Shown here in pieces: positions 2,914 to 60,307 of a stretch of 64,000 bases of DNA (within the stretch, counting starts at the first letter, position 1; each line of letters starts with the position of its first letter). The notes below the pieces were generated by a model. The model worked only from the letters and a program-made list of their open reading frames with translations, had not been told where the DNA came from and searched no databases. This stretch comes from Gekko japonicus (lineage: Eukaryota). The stretch covers positions 438,702-502,701 of the forward strand of contig NW_015170304.1 in the NCBI RefSeq assembly GCF_001447785.1, read 5' to 3'. Made by a program: the position numbers and the translations under genes.

Positions 2914-3986
2914 CAGGAAAAGGCTGGAATGAGGTGTTCTCATTATCTGACCAAATACATTTTGCCCTATTTTTTGGAATGCTTCCCCCCACACACACAA
3001 GATCAGTCTTGCCAAGTGGCACACAGGCCCTTGGTAGCTACCACCAGAGTGGATTCTAAATAGGAATGAGACCAAATGTTGCAAGCTTGCTGTTTGATCC
3101 AGATTTCCCTGTTTCAATGTCACTTCTTCATTGTGAAAAACAAACCCATTAATCATTGTTTTTTCCCCAATGTTTGTTTCCTTGGGCTGAATTTCCACCC
3201 ACTTTTCACCATTATTTATGTAACATTTTCATCTAAATGGCATCTAAATGGCAAAATAATGATGATAATGTCTAAATTGTATTTAAAAACCCATAAAAGA
3301 ATAATCAAAAACAGCCATGAAAAGAGAGTAGACCAAAACCAATGACAATGGCAACATATGGAATAAAAATGAAAGAAAAATGGCTGTTATCAGCTCATCA
3401 TTAATTCTAACATCCAATTTGCAAGTACAACTGGATGGTCTCTTTTAGGGGTTCTAGGACTATATACCCTGATTGGCGATGGTAGACCAGAGGTGTCAAA
3501 CTCATTTGTTATGAGGGTCGGATCTGACACAAATGTTACTTTGTTGGGCCAGGCCATGTGTACCACCAGAGATATAAACTTTATAAAGATGATTTCAGAT
3601 CCCAAATGGCTTGTTTGGATTAGGTGTGATATACCTAATCCATTGGTAATGAGACAGGAAACCTAGATCTCAGTTTGGTCCAGGAGGATTCAGTCCAGGA
3701 GGATGAGAAGTAATCATTTAAGATGGAATGCTTCATAATAATTATTTAAGTCTGGAACTCCCCATCCAAGTTCTGACTTATGGCTGTACACTATCCTTTT
3801 ATGAAACCTACATTTTTTATTGCCAAATATCCATTCTTTTAGTGATCTGTTCCATTGTTTCATTTTATTTTCCTTTGAACCATTGGTAATGTTTGAAATA
3901 GGTACATTATTTTAGGTACCCAAAACATTTTAACACTTCTGATTTTAGAGGATATCCCTAATGTTTTATCTTTCCATCTTCTCATA

Positions 3987-4938
3987 TCTATATATCTAAT
4001 AGCCAAGTTGCCCCCTCTGTGTGGATACCTAAATCCACACAACGGGGGCACTTGGGGGGCAGAGAGATTTTCCTGCACATTAGGGGGAATCCCCAGATGT
4101 GCAGAAAAATCTGAAAAGTTTAAAAAAATATATGGGGGATACTTAAATCCCCCCAAAAGGTAAAAGAGTGTTCCCTGCGCATGTGCAGGGAACGCACTTA
4201 CCTCAGGGATCTGTGGCAGAGCTGTTGGTGCTGGCAGCGGCAAGGGGGAGCCTTGGCGGGCCGGCAGCTAGAAGCCATGGCCATTGCTGCTGCTGTTGGC
4301 GGTGGCAGCAGTGGGGGAAAGTCTGGTGGGGGTGGTGGCCTGGCGGCTTGGAGCCATGCAGGGCTCGCCGGTGTTACCGTTGTGGGCAGCGGCAGCAGGG
4401 AAGAGCCTGGCGGGCCTGACAGCTCGGAGCCATGCAGGGCTCGCCAGTGCTTCTGTTGTGGGCTACGGCAGCGGCGGCGGGGAGAAGGCTTGGCAGCTCG
4501 GAGGGAAGGAATGAGGGAGCCGATCCAATGTGGAAAGGGAGCCTCAACCCGCGCCAACGCGATCCTGTTGTCTGCAGAACTGGGGTTTGGGGCCACCACA
4601 GGGGCCCGATTCCGCTTGCACCTGCCGCACGCATTAGTCGAGCCCTTTCAGCCATTTCTCCAGGCACCATCCAGCCACGGTGAAACACTTAAAAGTCCCA
4701 CGGAAGTCAACAGGAAAGAATTAAACTCGCGCCTTAACTTTTTCTACAGGGCTTCGTTTTAAACTGCCATGAAAGTATCTACATTTTCATTACAAATCCC
4801 TAGATTGGGAGCTCTCTGCCCTGAGCAGAAACTTCCTAAGGCTGCAGTCCTTTGCAAATTAGTGGGGAGAAGCCTTGGCAGCTTGGGAGCCGCGGGAAAT
4901 ACTCCCCCCCGCGCGAGTATCGCGGGTCCCGCTTCTTG
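3987..4938 (+). mobile_element. non-autonomous Helitron, long copy (952 bp)
   Basis: 5' TCTATATATCTAATAG, 3' GC-rich hairpin (CGCGAGTATCGCG core) then CTTG; sits between host A3986 and T4939 with no TSD; removing it restores the local L1 reading frame (KIEKD-MRRWK). Confidence 0.85.
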
Positions 4939-6022
4939 TCCTTCTCTATTTTCTTCCATATTTTGTCATAATTGTCCTTTATCATCTTATCCAAAAATTT
5001 TGTATTACTATACCTAAATATTTAAATTTCTTTACTCCTAACCCTATATTTGTACTTCTATTTATTTCCTTCTTTTCTTCTCTACTTACATTTAAATATA
5101 TATTTTCTGATTTTGTCATATTGACGCTTAACCCTGAGCATTTTTCGAAATCCTCTAAAATAATCTTTACTACTTTTACTCCTTCTTTTGGGTTTGTCAT
5201 AATAATTATGTCATCTGCAAATAAATTTATTTTCATTTCCGCCTTACCTATCTTATAACTTTCTATTCTTCCCGAATTTCTGATCCGTTCCGCTAACTGT
5301 TCTCTTGCCATTATAAAAAGCAACGGTGATAATGGGCACCCTTGCCGTAACCCTCTTTGTATAGGAAATGCTTGTGAGTGCTCATTATTTACTCTTACTA
5401 TTGCCTTCCCTTCTTTATAGATTTCCTGTATTGCCTCTAGGAATTCCTTTTCGATTCCCACTTTACTCACTATTTGCCAGAAGTATTCATGAGATAGGGT
5501 ATCAAAGGCTTCGTAGACATCTAGTTTTAATAGACCTATTTTCTTCTTGTGACCATGGTATAAAACATTTAGAATATTTCTTATAGGATGGGTTATGCTT
5601 CTACCTTTTACGAACCCATATTGATCTCCTTTTATTATAGATGGGATAACCTTCTTTAATCTGTTGGCCATTATTTTAGCAAAGATCTTATAGTCTTGGT
5701 TTAGGAGACTTATGGGTCTATATGATCCTACTTCTTTAGGGTCTTTCTGAGGTTTAAGGATGAGTATTATTTCCGTCTTCCTCCAAGAGTCCGGAGCACT
5801 TTTGCCTTTCAGAACTTCATTGAACAATACCTGAAGTTCCGGTACTAAAATGTCCTTCATTTCTTTGTAAAATTCACCCATGAAGCCATCTAGACCTGGT
5901 GATTTACCCCCTTTTAGTTCTATTATTACTTCCCTTATTTCTTGGGCTGTAATTTCGTCCTTTAATTTCCCTCTCTCTGTTTCTTCTATTGTTTGGCTGA
6001 TTTCCTCCTGAAAGTCTACTGT

Positions 6023-6540
6023 GGCCCCAGCCACACGGCCAGGAAAATGTGGGGGGGAAGCGTGGCTGTTTGCCCCGGGGCAAAATACCACACTGCTGCG
6101 GGATCAGACGTCCGGTTGAGGTCCCGTCAAGGTCCCGTGACCAGGGGGGAGGTGCCGATCACACCACAGGCAAAGAAGTGGGGCGGGGTGGCAAACAGGG
6201 TTGTTGTTGTTTTTTACTTTTTAAAACTGAAGTGTGCACATGCTCCGTTGGGTGCTTGTGCGCATCCATAGAGCCTTGGGGAAAAAATGACCTGTTTGCG
6301 AGGGGACATGGGCGGGTGCCGGATGCCACCGGAAACGCGATCAGACACCCGCCCTTGCCCCGCGGTTTCCGGAAACTAATACCTCTGAGGTACTAGTTTT
6401 TTGCCGCGCATCTTCGGAGGGAAGCCTCGGTTGAGCCACGGGAGCTTTACACTTCCCAGAAGTGGTGGTGAGATCGCGCCCGGAAAATCCGCCTATCTTC
6501 CGTCTCTCCAGCTTGGCTACTGTTCCGTGTGACCGCAGCC
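6023..6540. mobile_element. PIF/Harbinger-like MITE inside the L1 ORF2
   Basis: Imperfect TIRs GGCCCCAGCCACACGG / CCGTGTGACCGCAGCC; 3-bp TSD TGT/TGC; removal rejoins the L1 frame (LYKKKN-x-VDFQEE). Confidence 0.7.
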
Positions 6541-6808: not shown

Positions 6809-8375
6809 TTTTTTTTTTTTTTTGGTAAACAAATTTTATTTTCTCAGGAATACAACATATAAAACATTTCATTCTATCAATTGTCTACCCCATTCCCAGT
6901 TCCTCCCCTCCCTCCAATGGCTTCCCACAATGCTTCCACCCCTGCTCCAAATTACTTCATATCATCAACAATATCAGTTTTTCATCATTACAATCTAAAG
7001 ATAACATCGTTTGACTTAATATTGATCTAAACATATTAAGTTTTGTTTCACATCCCAGTTCTTTTCCAGATAAATTTTAAAGTCATTCCATTCTCCAAAA
7101 AACTCATCGTCTTCTTTGTTATTCAGTTTTTTTGTAATCTTATCCATTTGTGCCATGAACAGAACTTTTTGTATCCATTCTTCAACCTCTGGTACCTTTT
7201 CTGTCTTCCAAAACTGAGCATAAATCATTCTCGCTGTCACTATCAGGTACCAGAGTAAAGTTTTTTTAGTCGTATTGACTTCTTCCATTTTGAGTCCCAA
7301 AAGCAGAATTTCCGGTGCTTTTTTAAAAGAACATTTCAGTATTTTTTGCATTTCATTGTGGACTTTTGTCCAAAAGTCTACAGCTTTCTCACAAGTCCAC
7401 CACATATGATAAAATGAGCCCTCATGCCTCTTACATTTCCAGCATTTGTTTGACATATTTTGATTCATATTTGCAATCTTCTTAGGTGTCATGTACCACC
7501 TATACATCATCTTATAACAATTTTCTTTAACATTAGTACATGTCGAGATCTTAATAGAGTTTTTCCACAAATATTCCCAAGTTTCCATATCTACTTCCTT
7601 ATTCATATTAATAGCCCATTTTAACATTTGTTCTTTAACAGTTTCATCTTCAGTATACCATTTTAACAACACCTTATACATTTTAGAAATATTTTTTCCT
7701 CCTCCACTCTCCCATACCTTTTCAATTTCATTTTTTTCCTCTCTAAAACCATAGTTTTTTTTGTCTGATCTAAAAAGATCATAAATCTGCATATATTTCA
7801 ACCACTCATATTCATATTCAATTTCATTCTGCTTTTTCATTACCCACTCTGTTCCCTCTTTTTTAATTAAATCTCTATATGGCAACCAGTCTCTACCTCG
7901 CTGTCTTGAGTAAGATATCAACACTTCTACTGGTACAATCCACAATGGTCTTAAGTCACTCTGGTACTTCTTATATCTTGTCCATACCATATACAAAGCT
8001 TTTCTCACCAAGTGAAGTTTAAAAAAACTGTCCATTTTTATCTTGTCATACCATAAATATGCATGCCAGCCAAATCTACAATCATGCCCTTCCAACCCCA
8101 ACAATCTGTCATTTTCAAGCTTCACCCATTGATCCATCCATGTTAGACAAACCGCTTCATAATATAGTCTAAGATTTGGCATTTGTAGACCTCCTCTTTC
8201 TTTGGCATCACAAAGTATTTTCATTTTGATCCTTGGTTTCTTGCCTGCCCAAACAAATTTTGACAACTCTTGTTGCCACTTGGCCAACAAATCCGTTTTA
8301 TGCAGAATTGGTATTGTTTGGAACAGGAACATCAAACGTGGTAGGACATTCATTTTTATAACTGATATTCTTCCC
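6808..8375 (-). mobile_element. young 5'-truncated L1 (L1-B): ORF2 C-terminus, 3'UTR, poly(A)
   Basis: Uninterrupted GRISVIKMNVLP...GGLQMPNLRLYYEA...CWKC-x8-HMWWTC (zinc knuckle) to the stop at 7016; AATAAA (TTTATT 6835-6840) and poly(A) (T run from 6808). Confidence 0.9.
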
Positions 8376-9072
8376 TGTTTTTTCTTCTTTATGGTCTCTT
8401 GGCAGTAGTCTTCCCTCACCCAGACCTTTTCCCCCCTAAAGCTCAAATCTGGTTTCTTTTTTAATGCTTTATAAACTTCTTGTTGCAATTTTTCCCTACT
8501 GAATTTAACAATCACATCCCTGGGGCTTCCTCCTCCTCCTCCTCCTCTTCTTCTCTGTAGTCTGTGGGCTCTCTCTATTTCTTCTGGCTTAACTGTTACT
8601 CCATTTTCATCTATCCATGTCCTCAGGGTTTCTTCCAAAGACTTGAATCCTACATCTTCCGTGATCCCTGCCAGAATTAAATTGGCTCTTCTATTTCAGT
8701 AAACTGGTTGGTTAATTGGTCAATCTTTTGTTTATTTTTCTGGGCCTGCTCTTTGGCAGAGGTTGCAGTATATTTTATTGTACTAATTTCCTCTGCCATC
8801 TCCATTACTTTCTCCTTAACTGCTTTAATCTCCTCTCCCATTTTCTCCTGGGAAGCTAACACCCTCTTCTCAAGGTCAGCCAGCTGCTCTGATAACTTTC
8901 GAATGTTTTTCGCCATTTTCCCGGTCCTGGGCATTCCCTCTTTAGGGAGTAATAAACTATTACTATCTTACCACACTTGAAGCTCAAGCTCTAAATTTTC
9001 TGCTTCGTCTGTTTATCCTATGCTGACGCTGCCCCCCCCCCCATAGATAGGACTATTCACATTATTTTGAGC
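8376..9072 (-). mobile_element. L1 5' region and ORF1 (coiled coil plus RRM/CTD), disrupted
   Basis: ORF 8677-8934 is a heptad-rich coiled coil; 8376-8638 carries IERAHRL...PRDVIVKF...VWVREDY, typical of L1 ORF1p. Confidence 0.8.
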
Positions 9073-10385: not shown

Positions 10386-10670
10386 CCAGTTTGGTGTAGT
10401 GGTTAAGTGCGCAGACTCTAATCTGGGAGAACCGGGTTTGATTCCCCACTCCTCCACTTGCACCTGGTTGGATGACCTTGGGCAAGCCATAGTTCTGATA
10501 AGAGCTGTTATTGAAAAAGAGCAGTTTCTGTCAGAGCTCTCTCAGCCCCATCTACCTCACAGGGTGTCTGTTGTGGGGAGGGGAATGGAAAGGAGTTTGT
10601 AAGCCGCTCTGAGACACCTTTGGGTAGTGAAGGGCGGGGTATAAATCCAATCTCTTCTTCTTCTTCTTCT
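10386..10670 (+). mobile_element. Squam3-like SINE
   Basis: tRNA head, family body, (TTC)n tail. Confidence 0.9.
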
Positions 10671-12413
10671 ATTGGGAAAACCTGAGCAACATGTGCTCCA
10701 GAGGCTCACACACACACACGCACACAATGATTCTCCTCCATTTCATCAGCTCCTCTCTGTATATGTGCACGCATGCCCACATGTATCTTATTGGTCAATA
10801 CCAGCAGGGCTAAAGGGAACCAGAAAGAGTTCATTCCCTCCAGCAACTCTATGACCAGGAATGGAAGATGGTCCTAGAGATCTCTGAGATCATCTCCACT
10901 TTTCTGGAGGGAGTGGAGTCCTGACCCTTTTGTTCTTCTTTTAGCACCTCTTCTGAGTGGGCTTAAAGGAATCTGAAAGAGCTTAAACTGAATGAACCAA
11001 GGAGTCTGAAACACTCTCCACTGCTTACCTCAGGTGCTTCTCTCACCAATAGATGGGAGACTGTCTCACTGGCTCCTGCGGTATCATGGATTGTCCTAAT
11101 GGCTCTTGGGCACTCTCCTATATCCTGATGGGAGCAGATGGGCCAAGCAGCTCTGGTTGGTGCTATTCATGGGCTTCATCAGATCCCCAGCCATGGAACC
11201 TGCCAAATAATCACTCACCCACTCCAAAACTATAATTACATTTTGAAATGAGGAAACATACATACACTATATGTATGTTGGAGATGGAGACAGGAAGAGA
11301 AATACTGACTCACGACATGTTGCTCTGTTATCTGGAAAAGTGGAATGCTTTTTGGACTCCTCTAGCCAGGTCACTCTTGGATGAGTCTGTCAGCAAGATG
11401 ATGCATTCGGAGTCCACAGGGAGGCTTTTTGTGCTGTGCTTTCGCACGTGCCTGGTGGAAGTGGCAGAATCAACATCAAAAAGGAACTCCTGGATCCTTC
11501 AGAGATCTGTCAGAGCAAAAGAGAATCATAGCTTGCTGATGAGCAACTGGGACCCAGGGAAAAGCGAGTGAGGATGGGCCAAAAGAAGCAAACACAAAGC
11601 CTGCAAGGTGGATTTGGGAAAACACTGAGAATCTGTGTGTCAAGATGGCTAAATAAGTGAAACTAGCCGTGTGAATGATGGGCACTGCAAGTGAGACTGG
11701 GGCATTGCCTAAGTTGTATTTATGTGGGTTACTGGCCATGCATCATGTATTCGTTTATTGCAAGAAAAAGTCAGTCCAGGGAAAGATTGCCTCTTTTTCT
11801 ACTTTGGTTTAACAAAGCAGCAACTGCCCATTACAGGCTGAATTAAAGGACGACATTGATTTGCTTTGAAGGTGTCAGGCCTGCAGAGCTGTGTTTAATT
11901 AGGGTTTCTCGTTGAGATAGCCTGTGAGATGTCCCAGACTAGGGCCTTTGGGAGGAAAGATCCTTGATTGCTTGGCCAAATAAATGAATTGTGATCAACT
12001 GCTTGTCACTGCCAACCCTAAACGGGAAACAAATAGCCAGTGAAGAGAGGGGTTGTACTTCGTTGCCCACTTCAGATCTACAAGTTATCCCCAGGTCCAA
12101 TAACATATCCTGGAGGCTTCCACTGGTGTATAAGATACAAGATGTTCCAGTCACCTAACTTGAAGCACAACACTTCTAGAAACTAGATTTTTATTAGACC
12201 ATTACCGATTCGTCCTAATTGTTTGCTTTGCAGAGCTCATTTGTGTGTCTTGCAGCCAGCTCGACATGATAAATGCAGATTTTATTTCTTCTTTCATCCT
12301 GTGTAAACTAACAGTGTACCATCCAGAGGAAAAAAGAAGGCAGAACAGCACCCTGAATCATTAGTTTAATACTAGATAAAGACTAGGAAGGGAAAAAAAT
12401 AAATCTACAAATC

Positions 12414-15138: not shown

Positions 15139-15850
15139 CAATTTATTATTTAGTTACATTATTTAGAGTCCATCTTTCTCAATGGGACTTATGGTGAATT
15201 ACACAGAGGGACCGATTCTGCAAAAGCAGCTGTTCTGCCCTCGGTCTCCCATTTCCCCTGGTTGTACTGCTCAGTTTCCCACTATTTGTTGCGTGGCCAC
15301 ATTTTGACCTGCATCTCTTCCTGATTTCCCCCACGTCTTCTTGATCCTAAAAAAATAAGGAACAAAAAGACGCGGGGGAAATCGGGGGGAGATGTGGGTC
15401 AAAATGCAGCTGTGGAGCAAATAGTGGAAATTCAGCAGTACAGTTGGGGGAAATGGGAGACCGAGGGTGCAACAACTGCTTTTGCGGAATTGGTCAGTGA
15501 GTCATGACAATCCACAGGATGGGACATTCAATAAACAATGAAATGGGATTTGGGCTGCAGAACCAACCAGAAATTTCATAGAACTGAACTGATGCAAAGC
15601 AGCTTGTTAACAAACCGATTAAATGATGTGAAATTATATTGTCAAATCCACCTTACAGCAAACTGTACACAGTAGAGTAGACCATAGTCCCTAATCATTT
15701 GTCCAAGTAACTTTGTGAATCTTTTTGTACAGTGCTACCCTATTATCTACTTAGACAAGCCCTCTTGAATAATTCTGTTTTGCAAAGTTTGCGGAAAGCC
15801 TGGAGAATGGGAGGCTTCCTGACCTCCTCACACAGGCGGTTCCACAAGTT
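15139..15850 (-). mobile_element. L2-clade LINE 3' fragment interrupted by a foldback MITE
   Basis: Minus strand near 15755-15848 encodes LWNRLCEEVRKPPILQAFRKLCKTELFKRA (L2 ORF2 C-terminus); AT-rich tail near 15140. Confidence 0.65.
15210..15495. mobile_element. foldback MITE (Harbinger-like)
   Basis: Whole element is an imperfect inverted repeat, GACCGATTCTGCAAAAGCAG...CTGCTTTTGCGGAATTGGTC; flanks AGG/AGT. Confidence 0.75.
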
Positions 15851-20021: not shown

Positions 20022-20452
20022 GGGCTCCCTCTAAGCTGTGGAATCTAGGGCTGCCAAGCCGTGGCGGGGGATCCATGCATCGTCACAGGATCCCTGCTGT
20101 GGGGGGACAGCAATACACGCTGCACCGGAGTCGTCAGGATGTGACGCTACACGTCGATCTGGCAACGGGGCTCTTTGGAGTCCCGTTGCCAGAGCGATGC
20201 GTAGCGTCACATCCTGGCGACACCGGTGCAGCGCATATCGCTGTTCCCCTGCGGCAGGGATCCTGTGATGACGCACGGATCCCCCGCCGCGGCTTGGCAG
20301 CCCTAGTGGAATCTTGTGAGTGAAAATTCTACTTTGTGAGGTACCGGCATTAAAGTTGTGAGTGAGTGATTTGGCTTCTTCATAAATTAGTTTCCTCTGG
20401 AGCCATCCTTCCTGAGCTAAGACAAAAATGTGTGAGCTGGAGACTAAAAATC
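20022..20452 (-). mobile_element. hAT MITE family A, reverse truncated copy hosting a nested MITE
   Basis: Reverse complement of 32745-32953 and 40497-40702 (CTCCCTCTAAGCTGTGGA...AAAATTCTACTTTGTGAG...). Confidence 0.8.
20046..20305. mobile_element. 260-bp near-perfect palindromic hAT MITE
   Basis: TIR TAGGGCTGCCAAG/CTTGGCAGCCCTA, perfect 8-bp TSD GTGGAATC (20038-20045, 20306-20313), arms pair all the way to the centre. Confidence 0.9.
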
Positions 20453-22247: not shown

Positions 22248-25200
22248 TGAAAGAGAAACCATGGCTGCCTGGAGTCTCTGTTACAAATGGGAATTGGCCG
22301 ACAATTGTACCGGCAACAAGACCACCACGGAAAACTTCCTCAGACCTGGATACATTTCCACCAAGCTGGTGATGGCACAGAAGATTCTAAATTTGGTTTC
22401 TGCCAGTCTGAAGCTGATTTGTGCATCTGGATTGCAGAAGAGGCAATTACTGGCAGATTAAAACAAAACCTCTGAATACATTTTTTTTTAAAGAAATCGA
22501 GTATATAGCATTATTAGCACCCCAGCAGAATGCGTCAATGTGATGAATGAATAATCATATTTACTCAGCTCATTGGGAATCTTTTCAGCCATCTCTGCAT
22601 CATTCAAAAAAGGAAGCCGGCTTTGAACGTAAAGATTTCAAAGCAGGTTGGGGTGGGGTGCGGTTTACAGCCAGTGATTAGTTCTTTCCCCTCCTTTGCT
22701 TTCTGACATTTATTTCCTGTAAATATTTCACAAGCATAAGATCTGGGAGATGATGAAAGGCGAGTTTGTGATGTGAGCTCATTCAGAAGTCTAATTAAAT
22801 GAAAATAAATATGAGGGGTGGGATAGCCTGGGCCGGTGGAAATGGACAGGTCTTCAGGGAGAGGAAGAGGAATGGATACAGCTCATTTTCTATGTAGATT
22901 CTTATAGTTACTAAGATTAATGTTATGCACATCTGCACAGAAGAACCTGTGGTTTTTAATGGGTCAAGGATGGCCCTTGATGCAATAGTTGTTCATACAT
23001 TCTTCACTTTTCAAAGCTCCTATGACCAGATGATCATGAGTAAAAAAACATAAAACATTATTTACTAAAGGAAAATATGCTAGATGGAAATTTGGCGACC
23101 CAGTAGGTTGTGTTTGGGTCACTGTCTATCATCAGATAGGGAACATTATCCCCTTGAAGTTTATTAAATGAAGAATGTGTTAAAAGCGGTGAGATCCAAT
23201 GGTTCCTAAAAGTGGTAAAAATTATATTCCAATATTTTGTGAGACAGAGGTTGTAGTCAGACATGGTCTTAGCGTGGTCTGGCCGTGTCTCTAATTTATC
23301 CAGGGTTATTTGTTCTGTAGAGTTTCATCCAAACACATCACCCTTATCCCACCTCACTGCATGCTTACCCCGTGGTCAACAGTTCAGATTACTGCTGTGT
23401 GGTAACCATGGGGCGGGGGGGAGTTGGGCGGTATCCGTTTTTTTTTTTAAAAAAATGTTTTCTGGGCATGTGCAGAAGCACTTATTTGAAGCACCGCTCC
23501 TTTTTGACAGCTCCGCAATTCTTTTGCCAAGTACTATGATCATTTTTCGTATACACCTGTTATTCTCAGCCAGAAATCACTCCCTTTCTCACCTGATCTT
23601 ACTCCCTTTCCCACTCATTCCATAGGGAAGTTTCTCCTTTTTCTCTCACCAGAGAGCTTCCCTGCCAGAGCAATATTATGAAGTGGTTTGGAGTAAAGTT
23701 GCAGGGGTGGAATCCTGGCCGTCAATATGGGAGCCTAAATGGGGATTATTTCCACCACCGTCTCACCTCAAGAAACAGCTCAAAAACAACCTCCCCTGGG
23801 GGCTTCCAATCCCAATAGAACATTGTGGTGCATAAACACACAAGCGGTGCCTCATGACCCTGCAGTGGAGATCTGCTTATGCACATATCGCTAACTGATT
23901 TTTTTTTAAGGAGCAAAAATGGAAGGAAAGATTTAGACTTCCCTTCCAGCTTGAGACCACAATGGAGAGTTCAGACATCCAGAAATGCATAGTGAAACTA
24001 GACAATCCATTTGTCCAGTGTCAGAACACACTGATTCTGGGACAGGTGAAAACAGGAGGCCGACGACTGGGGAACGGTATATGGGCAATAATGTCTAATC
24101 ATGCATTTTAAATCCAGAAAGGAACAGCAACATCAGATCAAACAGCTCATCTGACCACAGCCAGAGTGTCGATTTTACCCTGACTGCAAGGGCAGAGACA
24201 ATCTGAAAATGGAATACAACAAAGTCTGCCCTGTAGCGCTTTGGAGGAGATGGCATTTCAAGAGTGAGGCCTAGCAGATACGGATGTCCAGAAACAGACT
24301 GGAAACTAGTGTAGTTGGATCAAGACTAGGGTGATATGGTCCCTATGACCCACTCCAGTCAACAACCTGGCTGCAGTTTTCTAAACAAATTGAAGTTTCT
24401 GAACACTTTTCAAGGCCAGTGTGCTGCTAGGGTTGCCAAAACCCCCCCCAGTGGAGGAGGGGTCCCTCACCACTAGGCCCCTCTGGTCCACTGCCAATCA
24501 GTGGGCTGGCAGAGGGAGGGACTTACAAAGAGAAAGAGGAAGGCCCAGGCCATGTTGCTGGCATTGCACAGGCTTTAATTAGAATACATTGTAAAAACAA
24601 GGTATTTTGTTCCAAAGTTTATTGAATTATACATCATTTTTCAATGCTTACATTTTTTATTCATATTGTACTGGTTAATATGTTTAACTGTTCTTTAGTT
24701 CATTATGGACTTGGCTAATGTTATAAAAAAGTGATTGTTATGTTTTCTTAACACTATTGTATTATACCAATAAAATGTTATTGGAGGAAGTGGCATCACC
24801 ACACCAGTGATTTCTGGGTGACACTCTGGTATTTGGGGGGGAAATCTATGGTAGAAATCATTTTTACCATAGAGTTTTCCCCAAATACCAGAGCATCACT
24901 TGGAAGTTGCTGGTGTGATGACATCACTTGCAGTGTGATGCTGGCAATCGGACCTTCCTTTTTCTCTTTCCCCCACATTCCCCACTGATTGCCAGGAGGC
25001 AACTCAATGTGCTGCAGTAATGTAATACAGATGCAACCAGGGCATGCACCACAGTGGCCAGATCTCTTCTGCCCCCAAAAGGCCACAGTTGGCTAACCAG
25101 TTGAAGGTGGTTAAAGGGACTCCCAGCCATAGCTGCCATCTGCTTATCCAGCAGTAGACCTGGATCCCGGAGCACCCTCAACTATGGCTAGGGTTGCCAG

Positions 25201-29504: not shown

Positions 29505-29849
29505 TAGGTCCAACTTATCCAGCAACCCTGTTGCCCATGGTGGCCGAGGAAATTGCCCTGAAAGGCCTCCCTTGTTGTTGCTGTCACAGGAACTGGTACA
29601 CTGCCTCTGAATATGGGAGTTCCATTTACCCATCATGTTTATTAACCATTGATGGACCTATCTTCCAATATTTTGTCTAATTGTCTTTTAAATCCATCTA
29701 TGCTATTGACTGTCACTTCATCCTGTGGCAATGAATTCCACAAGCTAATTAAATATGGCACAAATAAAGCCCCTCTTTCTTCCAAAGGCCGTCAACTTTG
29801 CCACCGGATTCTAATTGGGAGGGGGAAAATGCTTGCATTTTATTAAATA

Positions 29850-30162
29850 CAAGACGGGGTCCCGCGATACTCGCGGGGGGGGGGAGAAGAGCTCCGTCTC
29901 CTCCATCCCCCCCGCTCGATCTCCCCGAGGAGGCGGCGGTGAGGTCAGCTACAGAGCGTTCCGTGCGCATGCGCATGGAACGCTCTTGCACTTTCGGGGG
30001 GATTTAAACATCCCCCCGAAATTTTTTCTACTTTTAGCATTTTTGTGCACACGTGGGGACTGGCCCACGTATGCACAAACCTCCCCCTCCCCCCCAAGTG
30101 CCCCCGGAGCACTGATTTAGCGATCCGCACTCCGGGGGCAACTTGGCTATTAGATATATAGA
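29850..30162 (-). mobile_element. non-autonomous Helitron, short copy (313 bp), in F9 intron 2
   Basis: Same 5' TCTATATATCTAATAGCCAAGTTGCCCCC and 3' CCCGCGAGTATCGCGGG...CTTG as 3987-4938; A|T target, no TSD. Confidence 0.85.
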
Positions 30163-30273: not shown

Positions 30274-30500
30274 CAGGGCAGGCCCCAGCTTATTTTGCAC
30301 CCTAGGTGAGGATCCCTTCTGGCGCCCCCCCCCCTCCTGTGCACCCACCAATTCCCAAAAATAAATGCATTTTAGGAAGAATGAAAAACACAAATAATCA
30401 AGAAACTCCCAGAGTACTGGGCGGGGTGCAGTTTGGCGCTCCTAAGGGCCGGCCCACTCTAGGCGATCACCTAGTTCGCCTAGTGAGTGAGCCGGCCCTG
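30274..30500. mobile_element. hAT (Tip100/MER45-like) MITE
   Basis: CAGGGCAGGC / GCCGGCCCTG TIRs; perfect 8-bp TSD CCTATACC. Confidence 0.85.
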
Positions 30501-33675: not shown

Positions 33676-33958
33676 GAGAGAGCCAGTTTGGTGTAGTGGT
33701 TAGGAGCGTGGACTCTAATCTGGGAGAATGGGTTTGATTCCCCACTCCTCCACATGCAGCTGCTGGTGTGACCTTGGGTCAGTCACAAGTTCTTTCAGAG
33801 CTGTTCTCTCAAGGACAGTTCTAGACAGAGCTCTCTCAGCCCTACCTACCTCACAGGGTGACTGCTGTGGGGAGGGGAAGGGAAAGGGATTGTAAACCAC
33901 TCTGAGACTCCTTCCGGTAGTGAAGGGTGGGGTATAAATCCAATGTCTTCGTCCTCCT
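33676..33958 (+). mobile_element. Squam3-like SINE
   Basis: GAGAGCCAGTTTGGTGTAGTGGTTA head and family body/tail. Confidence 0.9.
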
Positions 33959-34148
33959 CCCCCTACCTGGCTTCATGCAACAGACATACATGAATGAACT
34001 ACTGGACCCAAATCTAACTGTTCTATTGCAGACCAACTAACCCTGCTAGGTGACTGATGGCAGGTCATTTTCCCTGTTCCCAGTTTTCCTTTAAAGATTC
34101 TTAAAGGAGCCATCATCTTTAATTGTATTTAATTCCTCTCCCTGTCAG

Positions 34149-41061: not shown

Positions 41062-41323
41062 CCCAGTTTGGTGTAGTGGTTAAGTGTGTGGACTCTAATC
41101 TGGGAGAACCGGGTTTGATTCCCCACTCCTCCACTTGCACCTGCTGGGTGACCGTGGGCAAGCCATAGTTCTGTCAGAGCTGTTCTTGAAAGAGCAGTTC
41201 TTGAAAGAGCTCTCTGAGCCCCACTTACCTCACAGGGTGTCTGTTGTGGGGAGGGGAAAGGCGTTTGTAAGCCACTCTGAGAGTATGAAGAGCCGGGTAT
41301 AAATCCAATCTCTTATCTTCTTC
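41062..41323 (+). mobile_element. Squam3-like SINE
   Basis: Family head, body and tail. Confidence 0.9.
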
Positions 41324-41827
41324 AATTTAAAAACAATCAACAGAAATCTTGGGACCAGTTTTAGCTAGAAGCACAAACTCAGTACACTTGGTGCCAGCCA
41401 AATATTATGTGGGGGAAAGGGGTTCCATAATTACAGTGGCACTATAGGAAAGGATCTGTCTTCTGTGTGTCGCTCCCCCCCCCCCATTCCAGGTAACTGT
41501 GGCACATGATTTGAGACTTCAGGTGATTGCAGAAATTAGGCATGGACATCTGGGACTGGGCAATCCTTTAAAAACGACACCCGTATGTCTCAGAGGTCAC
41601 TGCTGCAGGCATGTAAGGCATTTCATGTGGATTCCCACTTGTGAACTCTCACAGGGAATATGGGGGGACTCAAAAGTTCTGGGGCCCTCAACCATCCCTA
41701 AGCCTTCCCAGCTTCACTTGCTAGCTATTAATACAATGAGGGACCCAATGGATCTTTGCCTGAGAGAGCAAAGCACTTCCAATAATAAACATGGAATGTC
41801 CATTTTTCTCTCTTTTTTGGTATTTGT

Positions 41828-42010: not shown

Positions 42011-42062
42011 TAAGTCGCAGCTCTTTCTCTCTTTAATGCAATTGTGATGGCTCACTTACCAG

Positions 42063-42607
42063 GTGAACTCCACACAGAGGAAGATGACCACACTGAACAG
42101 TACCGCAGAGTGGTAAGGATAATCCCTTATCCCGCATACAACAGCAGCCTGAGGTACCACAACGACATTGCCCTCCTTGAACTGGATTCGCCACTAGAGC
42201 TGAATAGTTATGTCACACCTGTTTGCATAGCAGACAAGGATTTCACCAACAGCCTTCTGAAGTTTGGAGCAAGCACTGTGAGCGGCTGGGGAAGGCTGGC
42301 ACACCAAGGGCGGGAGGCAAGCATCCTCCAGGTCCTGAAAGTTCAGTTGATTGACCGGGCCACCTGCTTGAGGAGCACCAGGTTCTCCATCGTGTCCAGC
42401 ATGTTCTGTGCAGGGCATCCGTACGAGGCAAAGGATACATGCCAAGGAGACAGTGGAGGTCCACATGCCACGGAAATGGAAGGCACCTGGTTTCTGACCG
42501 GGATAACCAGCTGGGGGGAGCAGTGTGCCATGAAAGACAAATACGGCATCTACACCAGAGTTGCAAGATATGTCAAGTGGATCAGAGACACAACCAGGCA
42601 TACCTGA
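42063..42607 (+). CDS. F9: factor IX exon 8 (catalytic Asp and Ser, stop)
   Basis: [35 protein letters not shown] at 42605-42607; spliced CDS totals 1362 nt (453 aa). Confidence 0.98.
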
Positions 42608-49062: not shown

Positions 49063-49387
49063 CTGCGGGATAAAAATTGTGGGCAGGCAAATGTTAGATA
49101 AACCAATGCATTTTAAATGACTGTTTTACCAATGCCTTCAAAACTAGATAATTTGGCAGATGAATTAGAGGTTGACATTTTATTTTTGGCTTTGTTGTTG
49201 GTTTATGTTTTATTTTCCCCATATTAACAGAGTTTTCTATTATTATTATTTTTTGAAAGCTGCTCATTAGCTTTGGAAAACCAGCATTTCCTATTTTAAA
49301 TAAAATAAGTTTGGGAAGAGGGAGAGCAAAGACAGATTGAGATGACAGAGAAAATTAGGACAACGGGTAAACGATCACAGATATTAG

Positions 49388-49672
49388 AAGAGAAGAGAGA
49401 AGAGTTTGGATTTATACCATGCCCTTCACAATCCGAAGGAGTCTCCGAGTGGCTTACAATCCCTTTTCCTTCCCCTCTCCACAACAGACATCCTGTGAGG
49501 TAGGTGGGGCTGAGAGAGTTCTCTTGAGAACTGCCCTTGACAGAACAGCTCTGAAAGAACTTATGAGTGACCCAAGGTCACACTAGCAGCTGCATGTGGA
49601 GAAGTGGGGAATCACACCTGGTTCTCCCAGATTAGAATCTATGCTTTTAACCACTACACCAAACTGGCTCTC
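49388..49672 (-). mobile_element. Squam3-like SINE
   Basis: Reverse complement family copy. Confidence 0.88.
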
Positions 49673-49817
49673 ATATTAGATGCCAATGACGACCCCCACC
49701 CAACACCTATCAACTGAGACCTATTATGGGAAACATGATGGGCATAGAGAGCTGGTACAATTTTACTCAAAATAATTTGGGGGCTATACTAGGTGCACTG
49801 TACAGGATTCAACTAAC

Positions 49818-59106: not shown

Positions 59107-59189
59107 CTCATGCAGCAGCGCTCATGTAAGCTCTCCAGAACAGGTTTTTGTCTTGAATTATAGATCATCAAAATATTCCACAGGAAGAT
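59107..59189 (+). repeat. 83-bp perfect direct repeat, copy 1
   Basis: Identical to 60225-60307. Confidence 0.95.
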
Positions 59190-60228
59190 TGTGTGTGTGT
59201 GTGTGTGTGTGTGTATAGAAATATGGATTTCTAAAAAACCCCTGCCTTCCCCTGGAATGCCTCTTGCTGATACCCTGCTGTGTTGATTTTCCATTGAAGC
59301 CATATGGCCTCAACAGGCCTGCCATATAACCCTACATTCTTCACACTTCAGTGCTGGCAGAGAACAGATGGCCTAGCAAACAGGCAAAAACACACGTACG
59401 CCATGGGGTGGTTGGAATTTGGGGACCACATGACTGCAGGTGTGGCCTTCAAGACTACTGACCATTCAGAAGTTGTACCCATGGCAACCCAACACTGGAC
59501 ACTCCCATGTCGACTCCAATTGGCCCCTGGCCAGGGGTAATCTGGGGACTGGAATTGCCCTATATCTGGTCAAACCCTATGGAGAGAACTCTCTCTCTCT
59601 TCTGTTCCTGCTATCTCTGCTGCTCTGTGAACTTACCCCTGAAATGCTCTTGTCCTGCCATGTGGTCTGTGGGAGAACAAAGGATCCCCTTGTGCCTTAC
59701 AGCACATGAAGGCAAGGAAGGGATGTTCCTCCTCAAACCCCCCTGGGGGTACCTGGATTATTCCAATGGACAATATTGAACTCTTGGATGCTACCCTGAT
59801 GTTGGTAAATATGCTTCTTACTGTTTACTTAAGGCAAAACTTGCCTAGGCTTGTTAGTTTGAAATCCTTATTAGTCTGTGCTAAGTACTATACTGAATAA
59901 ACTTATTCTGGTTTTCTAATTTGTCTGTACTGTGGTAACTGGACTTCAAGCCTTTTTCCTGTGCCTGCTGCTCGCCAAATGGCGCTACCTTAGTAAGATT
60001 AACTGCACAGCTCTGGATTGAGCTGCTAATGTGTTAAGTCCCAGAGGCCAGTTAAGAGACTGAACCTTGCTCTTGGGCTGGAAAGGGACCCTAGTTAAAA
60101 AAGGTTCTGGTGGCTATTGTCTTGAAATCCAGAGAGCCTACATCTCTGGGTGATTGAGTAATGTATTGAGCCAGTGTAGAGTTCTTCCCCTCATCCCTGG
60201 ACTGGCCTGGGGGGGGGGCAGAATCTCA
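59190..60228 (+). mobile_element. LTR-like insert (about 1 kb) between the 83-bp repeats
   Basis: Starts TG(TG)n, could end ...GAATCTCA; TATA-like motif near 59560, AATAAA 59896-59901; no coding homology seen. Confidence 0.5.
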
Positions 60229-60307
60229 TGCAGCAGCGCTCATGTAAGCTCTCCAGAACAGGTTTTTGTCTTGAATTATAGATCATCAAAATATTCCACA
60301 GGAAGAT
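60225..60307 (+). repeat. 83-bp perfect direct repeat, copy 2
   Basis: Identical to 59107-59189. Confidence 0.95.

Follow-up and report, generated by a model that had tools for sequence, protein, structure and literature searches.

What kind of element left two inserts of unequal length in this 64,000-nucleotide stretch of DNA (the window), what moved it, how were its targets chosen, and where did the additional DNA of the longer insert come from? Our analysis makes it highly likely that both inserts belong to a family of non-autonomous Helitrons that ends in CTTG, was probably mobilized by a RepHel protein, strongly prefers to insert between A and T with a TA 7 to 8 bases on, and probably captured, in its long subfamily, a piece of the CpG island upstream of DMRT3.

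Two copies and their empty sites

The long copy spans positions 3987-4938 of the forward strand (952 bp) and the short copy positions 29850-30162 of the reverse strand (313 bp). Each is flanked by A and T and carries a GC hairpin followed by CTTG at its 3′ end; the preliminary description had placed both copies in this way, and its coordinates and ends proved exact. Nucleotides 1 to 212 are common to the two (76.9% identity, E 2e-39), and their last 35 nt are 88.6% identical. In the long copy, the left terminal sequence (3987-4198, +) consists of an AT-rich 5′ end and four predicted hairpins, and is followed by GC-rich internal repeats (4199-4506, +). The period of about 76 bp that had been noticed in these repeats as a tandem unit is real but weak (4337-4429 against 4413-4503, 77%), and TRF at score 50 did not call it. 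The right terminal sequence (4904-4938, +) holds the GC hairpin, with a 3-nt loop, and the CTTG end. A 212-aa ORF at 4124-4759 had no Pfam match and was dismissed as a gene, being a GC artefact.

The long copy lies at an A|T, antisense to a host L1 ORF2 fragment with a reverse transcriptase (RVT_1) domain (3687-6103, −; the left limit is only that of the stretch examined). In the split frame, the long copy separates ...KIWKKIEK from MRRWK. All 14 L1 paralogs retrieved with the right flank extend across the site into the left flank, 13 of them in register, which bears out the earlier proposal that deleting the long copy restores the host peptide. For the short copy, an orthologous empty site had been suggested as a check. 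Contigs of a related species, organism B (runs X13 and X16, from two studies), pass without a gap from 29848 to 30162 and skip exactly 313 bp, with flanks about 94% identical to ours. This empty site fixes the boundary of the short copy to the base. Beside the short copy, a second high-copy repeat (30274-30500) shows sharp ends in contigs of both organisms. Furthermore, a 559-codon frame at 7019-8695 (−), with an L1 ORF1-like start running into the C-terminal part of ORF2, suggests an internally deleted second L1 adjoining the host L1.

A large family with fixed ends

The exact 5′ 22-mer of the family occurs 1,539 times in the genome (control, 0). A looser 5′ pattern gave 3,222 occurrences on one strand and thus about 6,400 in all, a figure that extends the one-strand count to both, the reverse-strand count being one that multi-counts loci. 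A 5′ variant shorter by one base adds 781 copies. By exact motifs, therefore, the family numbers about 7,000, or roughly one copy per 350 kb; the high copy number expected earlier was right, but the density implied by two copies in 64 kb was not.

The termini were read in the first 100 listed loci of the exact 22-mer. The base before TC was A in 95 and G in 5. A 3′ hairpin was recognizable in 67 and a readable 3′ end followed in 64 of these, which terminated in CTTG in 63 cases and were followed by T in all 64; the other 33 copies yielded no 3′ end (gaps, truncation or out-of-range length), so that other termini may be missed. Homology among copies begins at TC, with unrelated flanks, and the subterminal hairpin sits about 10 nt from the 3′ end. 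Element lengths ranged from 128 to 2,428 bp. In none of the 67 copies did CTRR occur 9 nt or less from the hairpin anchor. Flanking duplications in this sample were no commoner than in shuffled pairs, and neither a terminal inverted repeat between the two ends nor a poly(A) tail was found. The check for target-site duplications (TSDs), inverted repeats, poly(A) or ragged ends thus turned up none of these, the ends being fixed at TC and CTTG, and the proposal of a non-autonomous Helitron inserted at A|T, with no TSD and a CTTG end, is upheld.

The family had been called fairly young and its host a squamate. The first holds only for the short subfamily, whose copies differ by a mean of 5.7% pairwise in a cluster of 40, with the window copy absent in organism B; the long subfamily is older, its members being 82-92% identical to the window copy. 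As for the host, the best matches of the DMRT3 peptide (see below) agree with a squamate, probably a gecko.

A RepHel partner with the same 3′ end

If the family is a Helitron, a RepHel partner with the same ends should be sought. A search of the genome with the PF14214 profile gave 34 matches, the best 20 of which fall into three groups (A, B and C). In the four loci of group B (L113, L116, L124 and L126), the 3′ hairpin is followed by the terminal stretch of the family, complete to CTTG|T in three; the hairpin has a different stem and stands in the same place as in the family. In contrast, CTAG is the end of group A and C elements at 8 of the 9 loci shown, and both groups were rejected as the partner. 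Their CTAG serves as an internal control, indicating that CTTG belongs to one lineage. These nine loci (L111, L112, L114, L117 and L118 in group A; L119, L123, L125 and L127 in group C) make up two further RepHel lineages in their own right; CTAA is seen in some of their 3′ flanks too, at a shorter distance from the junction. Since L111 and L112 keep ORF pieces of 800-980 codons, group A is younger than group B.

Both ends surround a RepHel in one locus only, L116. This element of 7,535 bp has a 5′ end 74.7% like the first 190 nt of the long copy and a 3′ end in CTTG; it also holds a second 5′-like end 2.1 kb inward from the outer one and may be a compound element. Furthermore, in three short copies (L100, L133 and L162) the exact 5′ 22-mer of the family stands together with the 3′ end of group B. 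The Rep region of group B aligns with Helraiser 7LCC (E 1.6e-112), HUH motif included, and its helicase matches PIF1 domains, with the closest protein in the database at 51% identity. All four copies of group B carry stops or frame changes, and an intact ORF was not found among them. The partner that had been called for is thus present in broken form, and the family was likely mobilized by a RepHel whose broken genomic copies share its CTTG end.

TC, the subterminal hairpin, A|T insertion without a TSD and a RepHel partner all agree with a canonical Helitron; the 3′ CTRR does not. CTTG is, however, a published exception: as far as the available parts of these reports go, it is the fixed end of HELPO2 in Pleurotus ostreatus (PMC4289320), and it occurs in maize and in terminator-deleted Helraiser (PMC4778049). 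We have therefore filed the family as a variant of the canonical Helitron, and the terminus, rightly described at first as non-canonical, is not new. The missing CTRR and the hairpins near the 5′ end would also suit Helitron2/Helentron-like elements, as defined in the accessible part of 10.1101/2024.02.08.579435, or cut-and-paste MITEs. We regard such an assignment as extremely improbable, as insertion is at A|T and not T|T, neither a TSD nor a terminal inverted repeat is present, and the linked RepHel is close to Helraiser.

Target choice beyond A|T

From 128 distinct 3′ flanks we set aside 13 at a CR1 site (see below) and 13 scored as head-to-tail. In the remaining 102, the spaced motif T-N6/7-TA was present in 82, against 12.9% of 34,033 background A|T sites, and T-N5/6-CTAA in 24, against 0.7%. 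The T-N6/7-TA motif was chosen post hoc, after inspection of the data; among true ends fetched later, 11 of 15 match T-N6/7-TA (4 further rows were false ends, and one locus overlaps the earlier set). Both window copies conform, with T-N7-TA in the 3′ target flank of the long copy (4939-4952, +) and T-N6-TA in that of the short copy (29836-29849, −). An in-register likeness between the 3′ flank and the element's own 5′ end was rejected (4.07 matches against 4.53 in shuffled pairs; z −3.2), the likeness being seen only at offsets of 2-3 nt (z 3.3 and 5.4). Retained insertions mirror selection as well as targeting.

Among 100 unbiased copies, 10 occupy a single A|T near the C-terminal codons of an ORF2, all in the same orientation, in a repeat that, by its peptide, is of the CR1 type. 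None of the 100 lies at any of the other 85 A|T sites in the 680-nt CR1 piece. Genome-wide, 417 exact junctions fall at this one base, against a background in which the repeat's 16-mer occurs 39,536 times. In 12 of 30 CR1-site copies the element is complete and CR1 resumes exactly to the base, and the site is continuous in most of 30 unoccupied CR1 copies. Four loci with a second CR1 after the element (L257, L266, L273 and L278) were set aside as neighbouring CR1 copies or gaps, with no duplication of unique flank.

Was this site hit repeatedly, or were one or a few old insertions multiplied later, through CR1-Helitron chimeras, gene conversion or Helitron read-through? A flank can indeed travel with the element: L003 and L004 are 99.4% identical through the element and on into about 185 bp of CR1 flank, whereas their 5′ flanks differ. 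A position matrix of the target, moreover, puts the CR1 site in only the 96.7th percentile, with 0.08-0.4% of insertions expected there, against 6.5-10% observed; as a full account of the hotspot the matrix is therefore insufficient, 16- to 80-fold short, which leaves room for later multiplication. However, in a tree of 161 5′ ends, a set enriched for CR1-site copies by design, the 30 CR1-site copies need 27 changes, against a shuffled mean of 28.0. At least 13 of these changes are required by the starred branches, and the CR1-site copies do not group together in any of 200 bootstrap trees. They also have many different 5′ sequences and lengths, and lie in different CR1 subfamilies truncated at different points. 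We consider multiplication of old insertions unlikely; the scatter over the tree argues that the site was hit many times. The hotspot is real and exceeds the motif prediction, which accounts for only a small part of it. At a 2-nt offset, eight bases of the CR1 site are also found in the 5′ end of the element itself. As a separate observation, L003 and L004 hold the same 506-bp element together with the CR1 flank, and the shared stretch does not stop at CTTG; they are a candidate 3′ transduction.

Copies are also found head to tail. The genome holds 170 exact 3′-to-5′ junctions, and in the first 100 of these listed, 76 involve the shorter 5′ variant. This variant is directly preceded by the CTTG of another copy in 6 of 30 loci, the standard end in 3 of 100. 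CTAA is one base nearer in the shorter variant, and its excess of junctions is consistent with the spacing rule. Simple concatemers were rejected: of the 9 pairs of neighbours that could be compared, 5 are 81-85% alike and the others less so (1 of 13 was a false call). Adjoining copies come from different subfamilies, which suggests that one inserted onto the 5′ end of another already present; alternatively, these junctions may stem from compound elements that moved together. Stacks of two to four copies from different subfamilies occur at L034 (G000:C13986), L036 and L033, and several begin with the cargo-bearing subfamily.

Hairpins of the left end

In both window copies, four hairpins are predicted within the first 210 bp. 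Among the 46 of 74 cluster representatives that have all four regions, 89.4% of cells pair, and both-side changes occur in 19 of 55 pairs, against 13.0 ± 2.0 expected; none of 500 shuffles reaches 19, and the value lies above all slid controls. The structure was taken from one member and the shuffle control ignores relatedness. With a chance only a little short of even, these hairpins may be a by-product irrelevant to transposition, which arises when palindromes serve to repair one another while the DNA replicates as a single strand. Many both-side changes could then be single inherited events, and unsupervised folding of the alignment recovered parts of only two of the four hairpins, with a covariation term of −0.22 kcal/mol. 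For a selected structure speak the excess of pairing and of both-side changes over shuffles and slid controls, and the fact that homology across subfamilies with unrelated interiors ends at this block of about 210 bp.

Origin of the cargo

Of the roughly 640 extra bases that had been assigned to the long copy, foreign DNA makes up only 363 (4507-4869, +). The rest is internal sequence present also in cargo-less relatives, including the 76-bp unit, which was thereby excluded as cargo. Searched against the genome, positions 4520-4860 gave 20 matches: 16 within Helitrons, which form the cargo-bearing subfamily of the long copy, one at a locus on C1694 and three partial ones elsewhere. The C1694 locus holds nucleotides 521-883 of the element whole, at 87.7% identity (G000:C1694:878416-878777) and without Helitron ends. 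It is a CpG island of several kilobases (CpG observed/expected mostly 0.6-1.2), and the ORF whose start codon lies 4.3-4.7 kb downstream of the donor segment is DMRT3. A DMRT1 next to the donor was set aside, only one DM domain being found on C1694; by synteny, the donor would lie between DMRT1 and DMRT3. The captured cargo proposed earlier has thus been traced to one locus.

Four relatives of 550-582 bp lack exactly the cargo and hold once the stretch that flanks it twice in the long copy, namely a 23-bp direct repeat of Helitron sequence before (4479-4501, +) and after the cargo (4864-4886, +). A comparison of nine long copies with the donor, which leaves out two rows with no cargo (L054 and L055), shows decay at 102 of 213 donor CpGs and 4 changes the opposite way. 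The cargo-less relatives and the CpG decay together indicate the direction from donor to Helitron. Furthermore, the long copies share indels relative to the donor, which points to one internal capture followed by amplification. The read-through model is at odds with a cargo enclosed by both ends and with a donor at which no Helitron is left; the cargo-less parent, the donor and the flanking duplication record an internal capture that 3′ read-through leaves unexplained.

The segment near DMRT3 could instead be a Helitron remnant that lost its ends and kept its CpGs in an unmethylated island, with the cargo drawn from elsewhere. CpG retention alone would also be expected after insertion into an island, and among outgroups the donor is seen in organism B only, and there only across its 3′ boundary. 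However, no Helitron 5′ end occurs in the 9.9 kb around the donor, and the one loose 3′-like match, 900 bp off, is without hairpin and CTTG. A remnant would also need to have lost both ends exactly at the cargo limits set by the cargo-less relatives, and three unrelated island copies (L309, L310 and L311) overlap these limits and run on with the donor. We therefore find a remnant very unlikely and conclude that the long subfamily likely captured the CpG-island piece from upstream of DMRT3. Since organism B has both the donor and contigs with copy-type variants, the capture likely predates the split from it. Further captures in the family are likely as well: 12 of 58 interiors have at least 100 nt common to no other in the sample. 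In RNA, 3% of one run (X21) contained no donor-like reads; its 22 reads on the donor stretch are all 85-95% alike and on both strands, and hence come from Helitron copies.

The island copies deserve separate mention. Another element, in two copies 85-87% alike (L309:4030-5026 and L310:3970-5015; G000:C7373 and C7836), carries about 740 bp of the DMRT3-upstream island, stopping at the same donor base; its own ends look hAT-like, with no clear TSD. Apparently, two different elements have each copied from this island. A 220-bp stretch (L311:4859-5078; G000:C7823), 97.7% identical to a neighbouring part of the island and with no transposon ends seen, is a third, younger copying event.

Other features of the window

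A 197-codon trypsin-family exon lies at 42014-42604 (+) and resembles the last exon of coagulation factor IX. A 270-bp repeat, probably a SINE, occurs in six copies of 79-94% identity (132-401, 2206-2494, 10386-10671, 33678-33962, 41063-41324 and 49385-49673). Three elements are self-inverted (75-85%) and MITE-like (15210-15495, 20045-20306 and 24788-24929). An exact 83-bp direct repeat (59107-59189 and 60225-60307), 1.1 kb apart and including the start of a TG microsatellite, may be an assembly artefact.

Discussion

By analogy with the biochemistry of Helraiser, the HUH domain of the RepHel would nick the 5′ TC strand and the helicase would peel the nicked strand off. The 3′ hairpin would end this round at CTTG, and a circle would form and be joined into an A|T site. 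RepHel may also read the target strand 3′ of the nick, where T...CTAAT, a motif likewise present in the element's own 5′ end, would be recognized; insertion would then be steered to the CR1 site and to the 5′ ends of copies already in place. As for the cargo, a single entry into a copy, through repair or template switching, would have produced the 23-bp duplication, with amplification afterwards. It is conceivable, though we rate it rather doubtful, that a RepHel pocket for its own 5′ end reads targets and so accounts for hundreds of independent CR1 hits and for stacking, that the hairpins are a selected single-strand structure, and that the family dispersed regulatory DNA from the DMRT3 island. 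If true, this would be sequence-selective, safe-haven integration, undescribed for rolling-circle transposons in the literature searched.

The usual summary of Helitron targeting is 'any AT'. The spaced motif and the single-base hotspot therefore offer a handle on target choice by RepHel, of relevance to Helraiser as a gene-transfer tool. In addition, a CTTG end fixed in thousands of copies means that annotators based on CTRR would miss the family. Squamate Helitrons and capture by vertebrate Helitrons are already known; new here are the target motif, the CR1 hotspot, the cargo traced to the DMRT3 island, and four 5′ hairpins with some compensatory changes. A search of the open literature, including the accessible parts of PMC5876387 and PMC13286980, brought up no account of the family, of a target motif with such spacing, of a hotspot in a LINE or of a DMRT3 capture; subscription journals, Dfam and Repbase lay outside its scope.

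The comparisons that follow are with the available parts of the published reports. The closest system is Helibat/Helraiser with HelibatN3 of vesper bats (PMC4778049, PDB 7LCC), which shares the 5′ TC, the 3′ hairpin, A|T insertion without a TSD and a RepHel partner. Head-to-tail junctions occur there too, and Helraiser targets AT with a preference for AT-richness that is strongest 3′ of the site (PMC4778049). In contrast, CTTG is family-wide here and found in the RepHel partner, whereas in Helraiser it appears only when the terminator is deleted, and neither a spaced T-N6/7-TA motif nor a single-base LINE hotspot is described in the available text on Helibat/Helraiser (PMC4778049). HelibatN3 is likewise a non-autonomous subfamily with captured promoter-region DNA; unlike it, the cargo here lies 4.3-4.7 kb from a start codon, holds no coding sequence and exists in about 16 copies, not thousands (PMC4778049).

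HELPO2 resembles the present family, by description, in its fixed CTTG end, AT insertion and subterminal hairpin, but is fungal, whereas our family is from a lizard (PMC4289320). Among squamates, Helitron-1_AC, Helitron-2_AC and HeligloriaB of Anolis also combine few autonomous with many non-autonomous elements and occasional capture (PMC3014272, PMC2997563). As described there, the non-autonomous Anolis families are internal deletions of autonomous ones and capture is rare and of other repeats; compared by description, the interiors here are unlike theirs in being GC-rich, varied and inclusive of single-locus host DNA. Heli1Xen1 of Xenopus laevis is also a non-autonomous vertebrate Helitron that captured and multiplied host fragments, although of coding sequence, unlike the cargo here (PMC12001565). 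With capture of CpG-island DNA near a DMRT gene, the spread of regulatory DNA known from bats would have a counterpart in lizards, the function of the cargo being putative.
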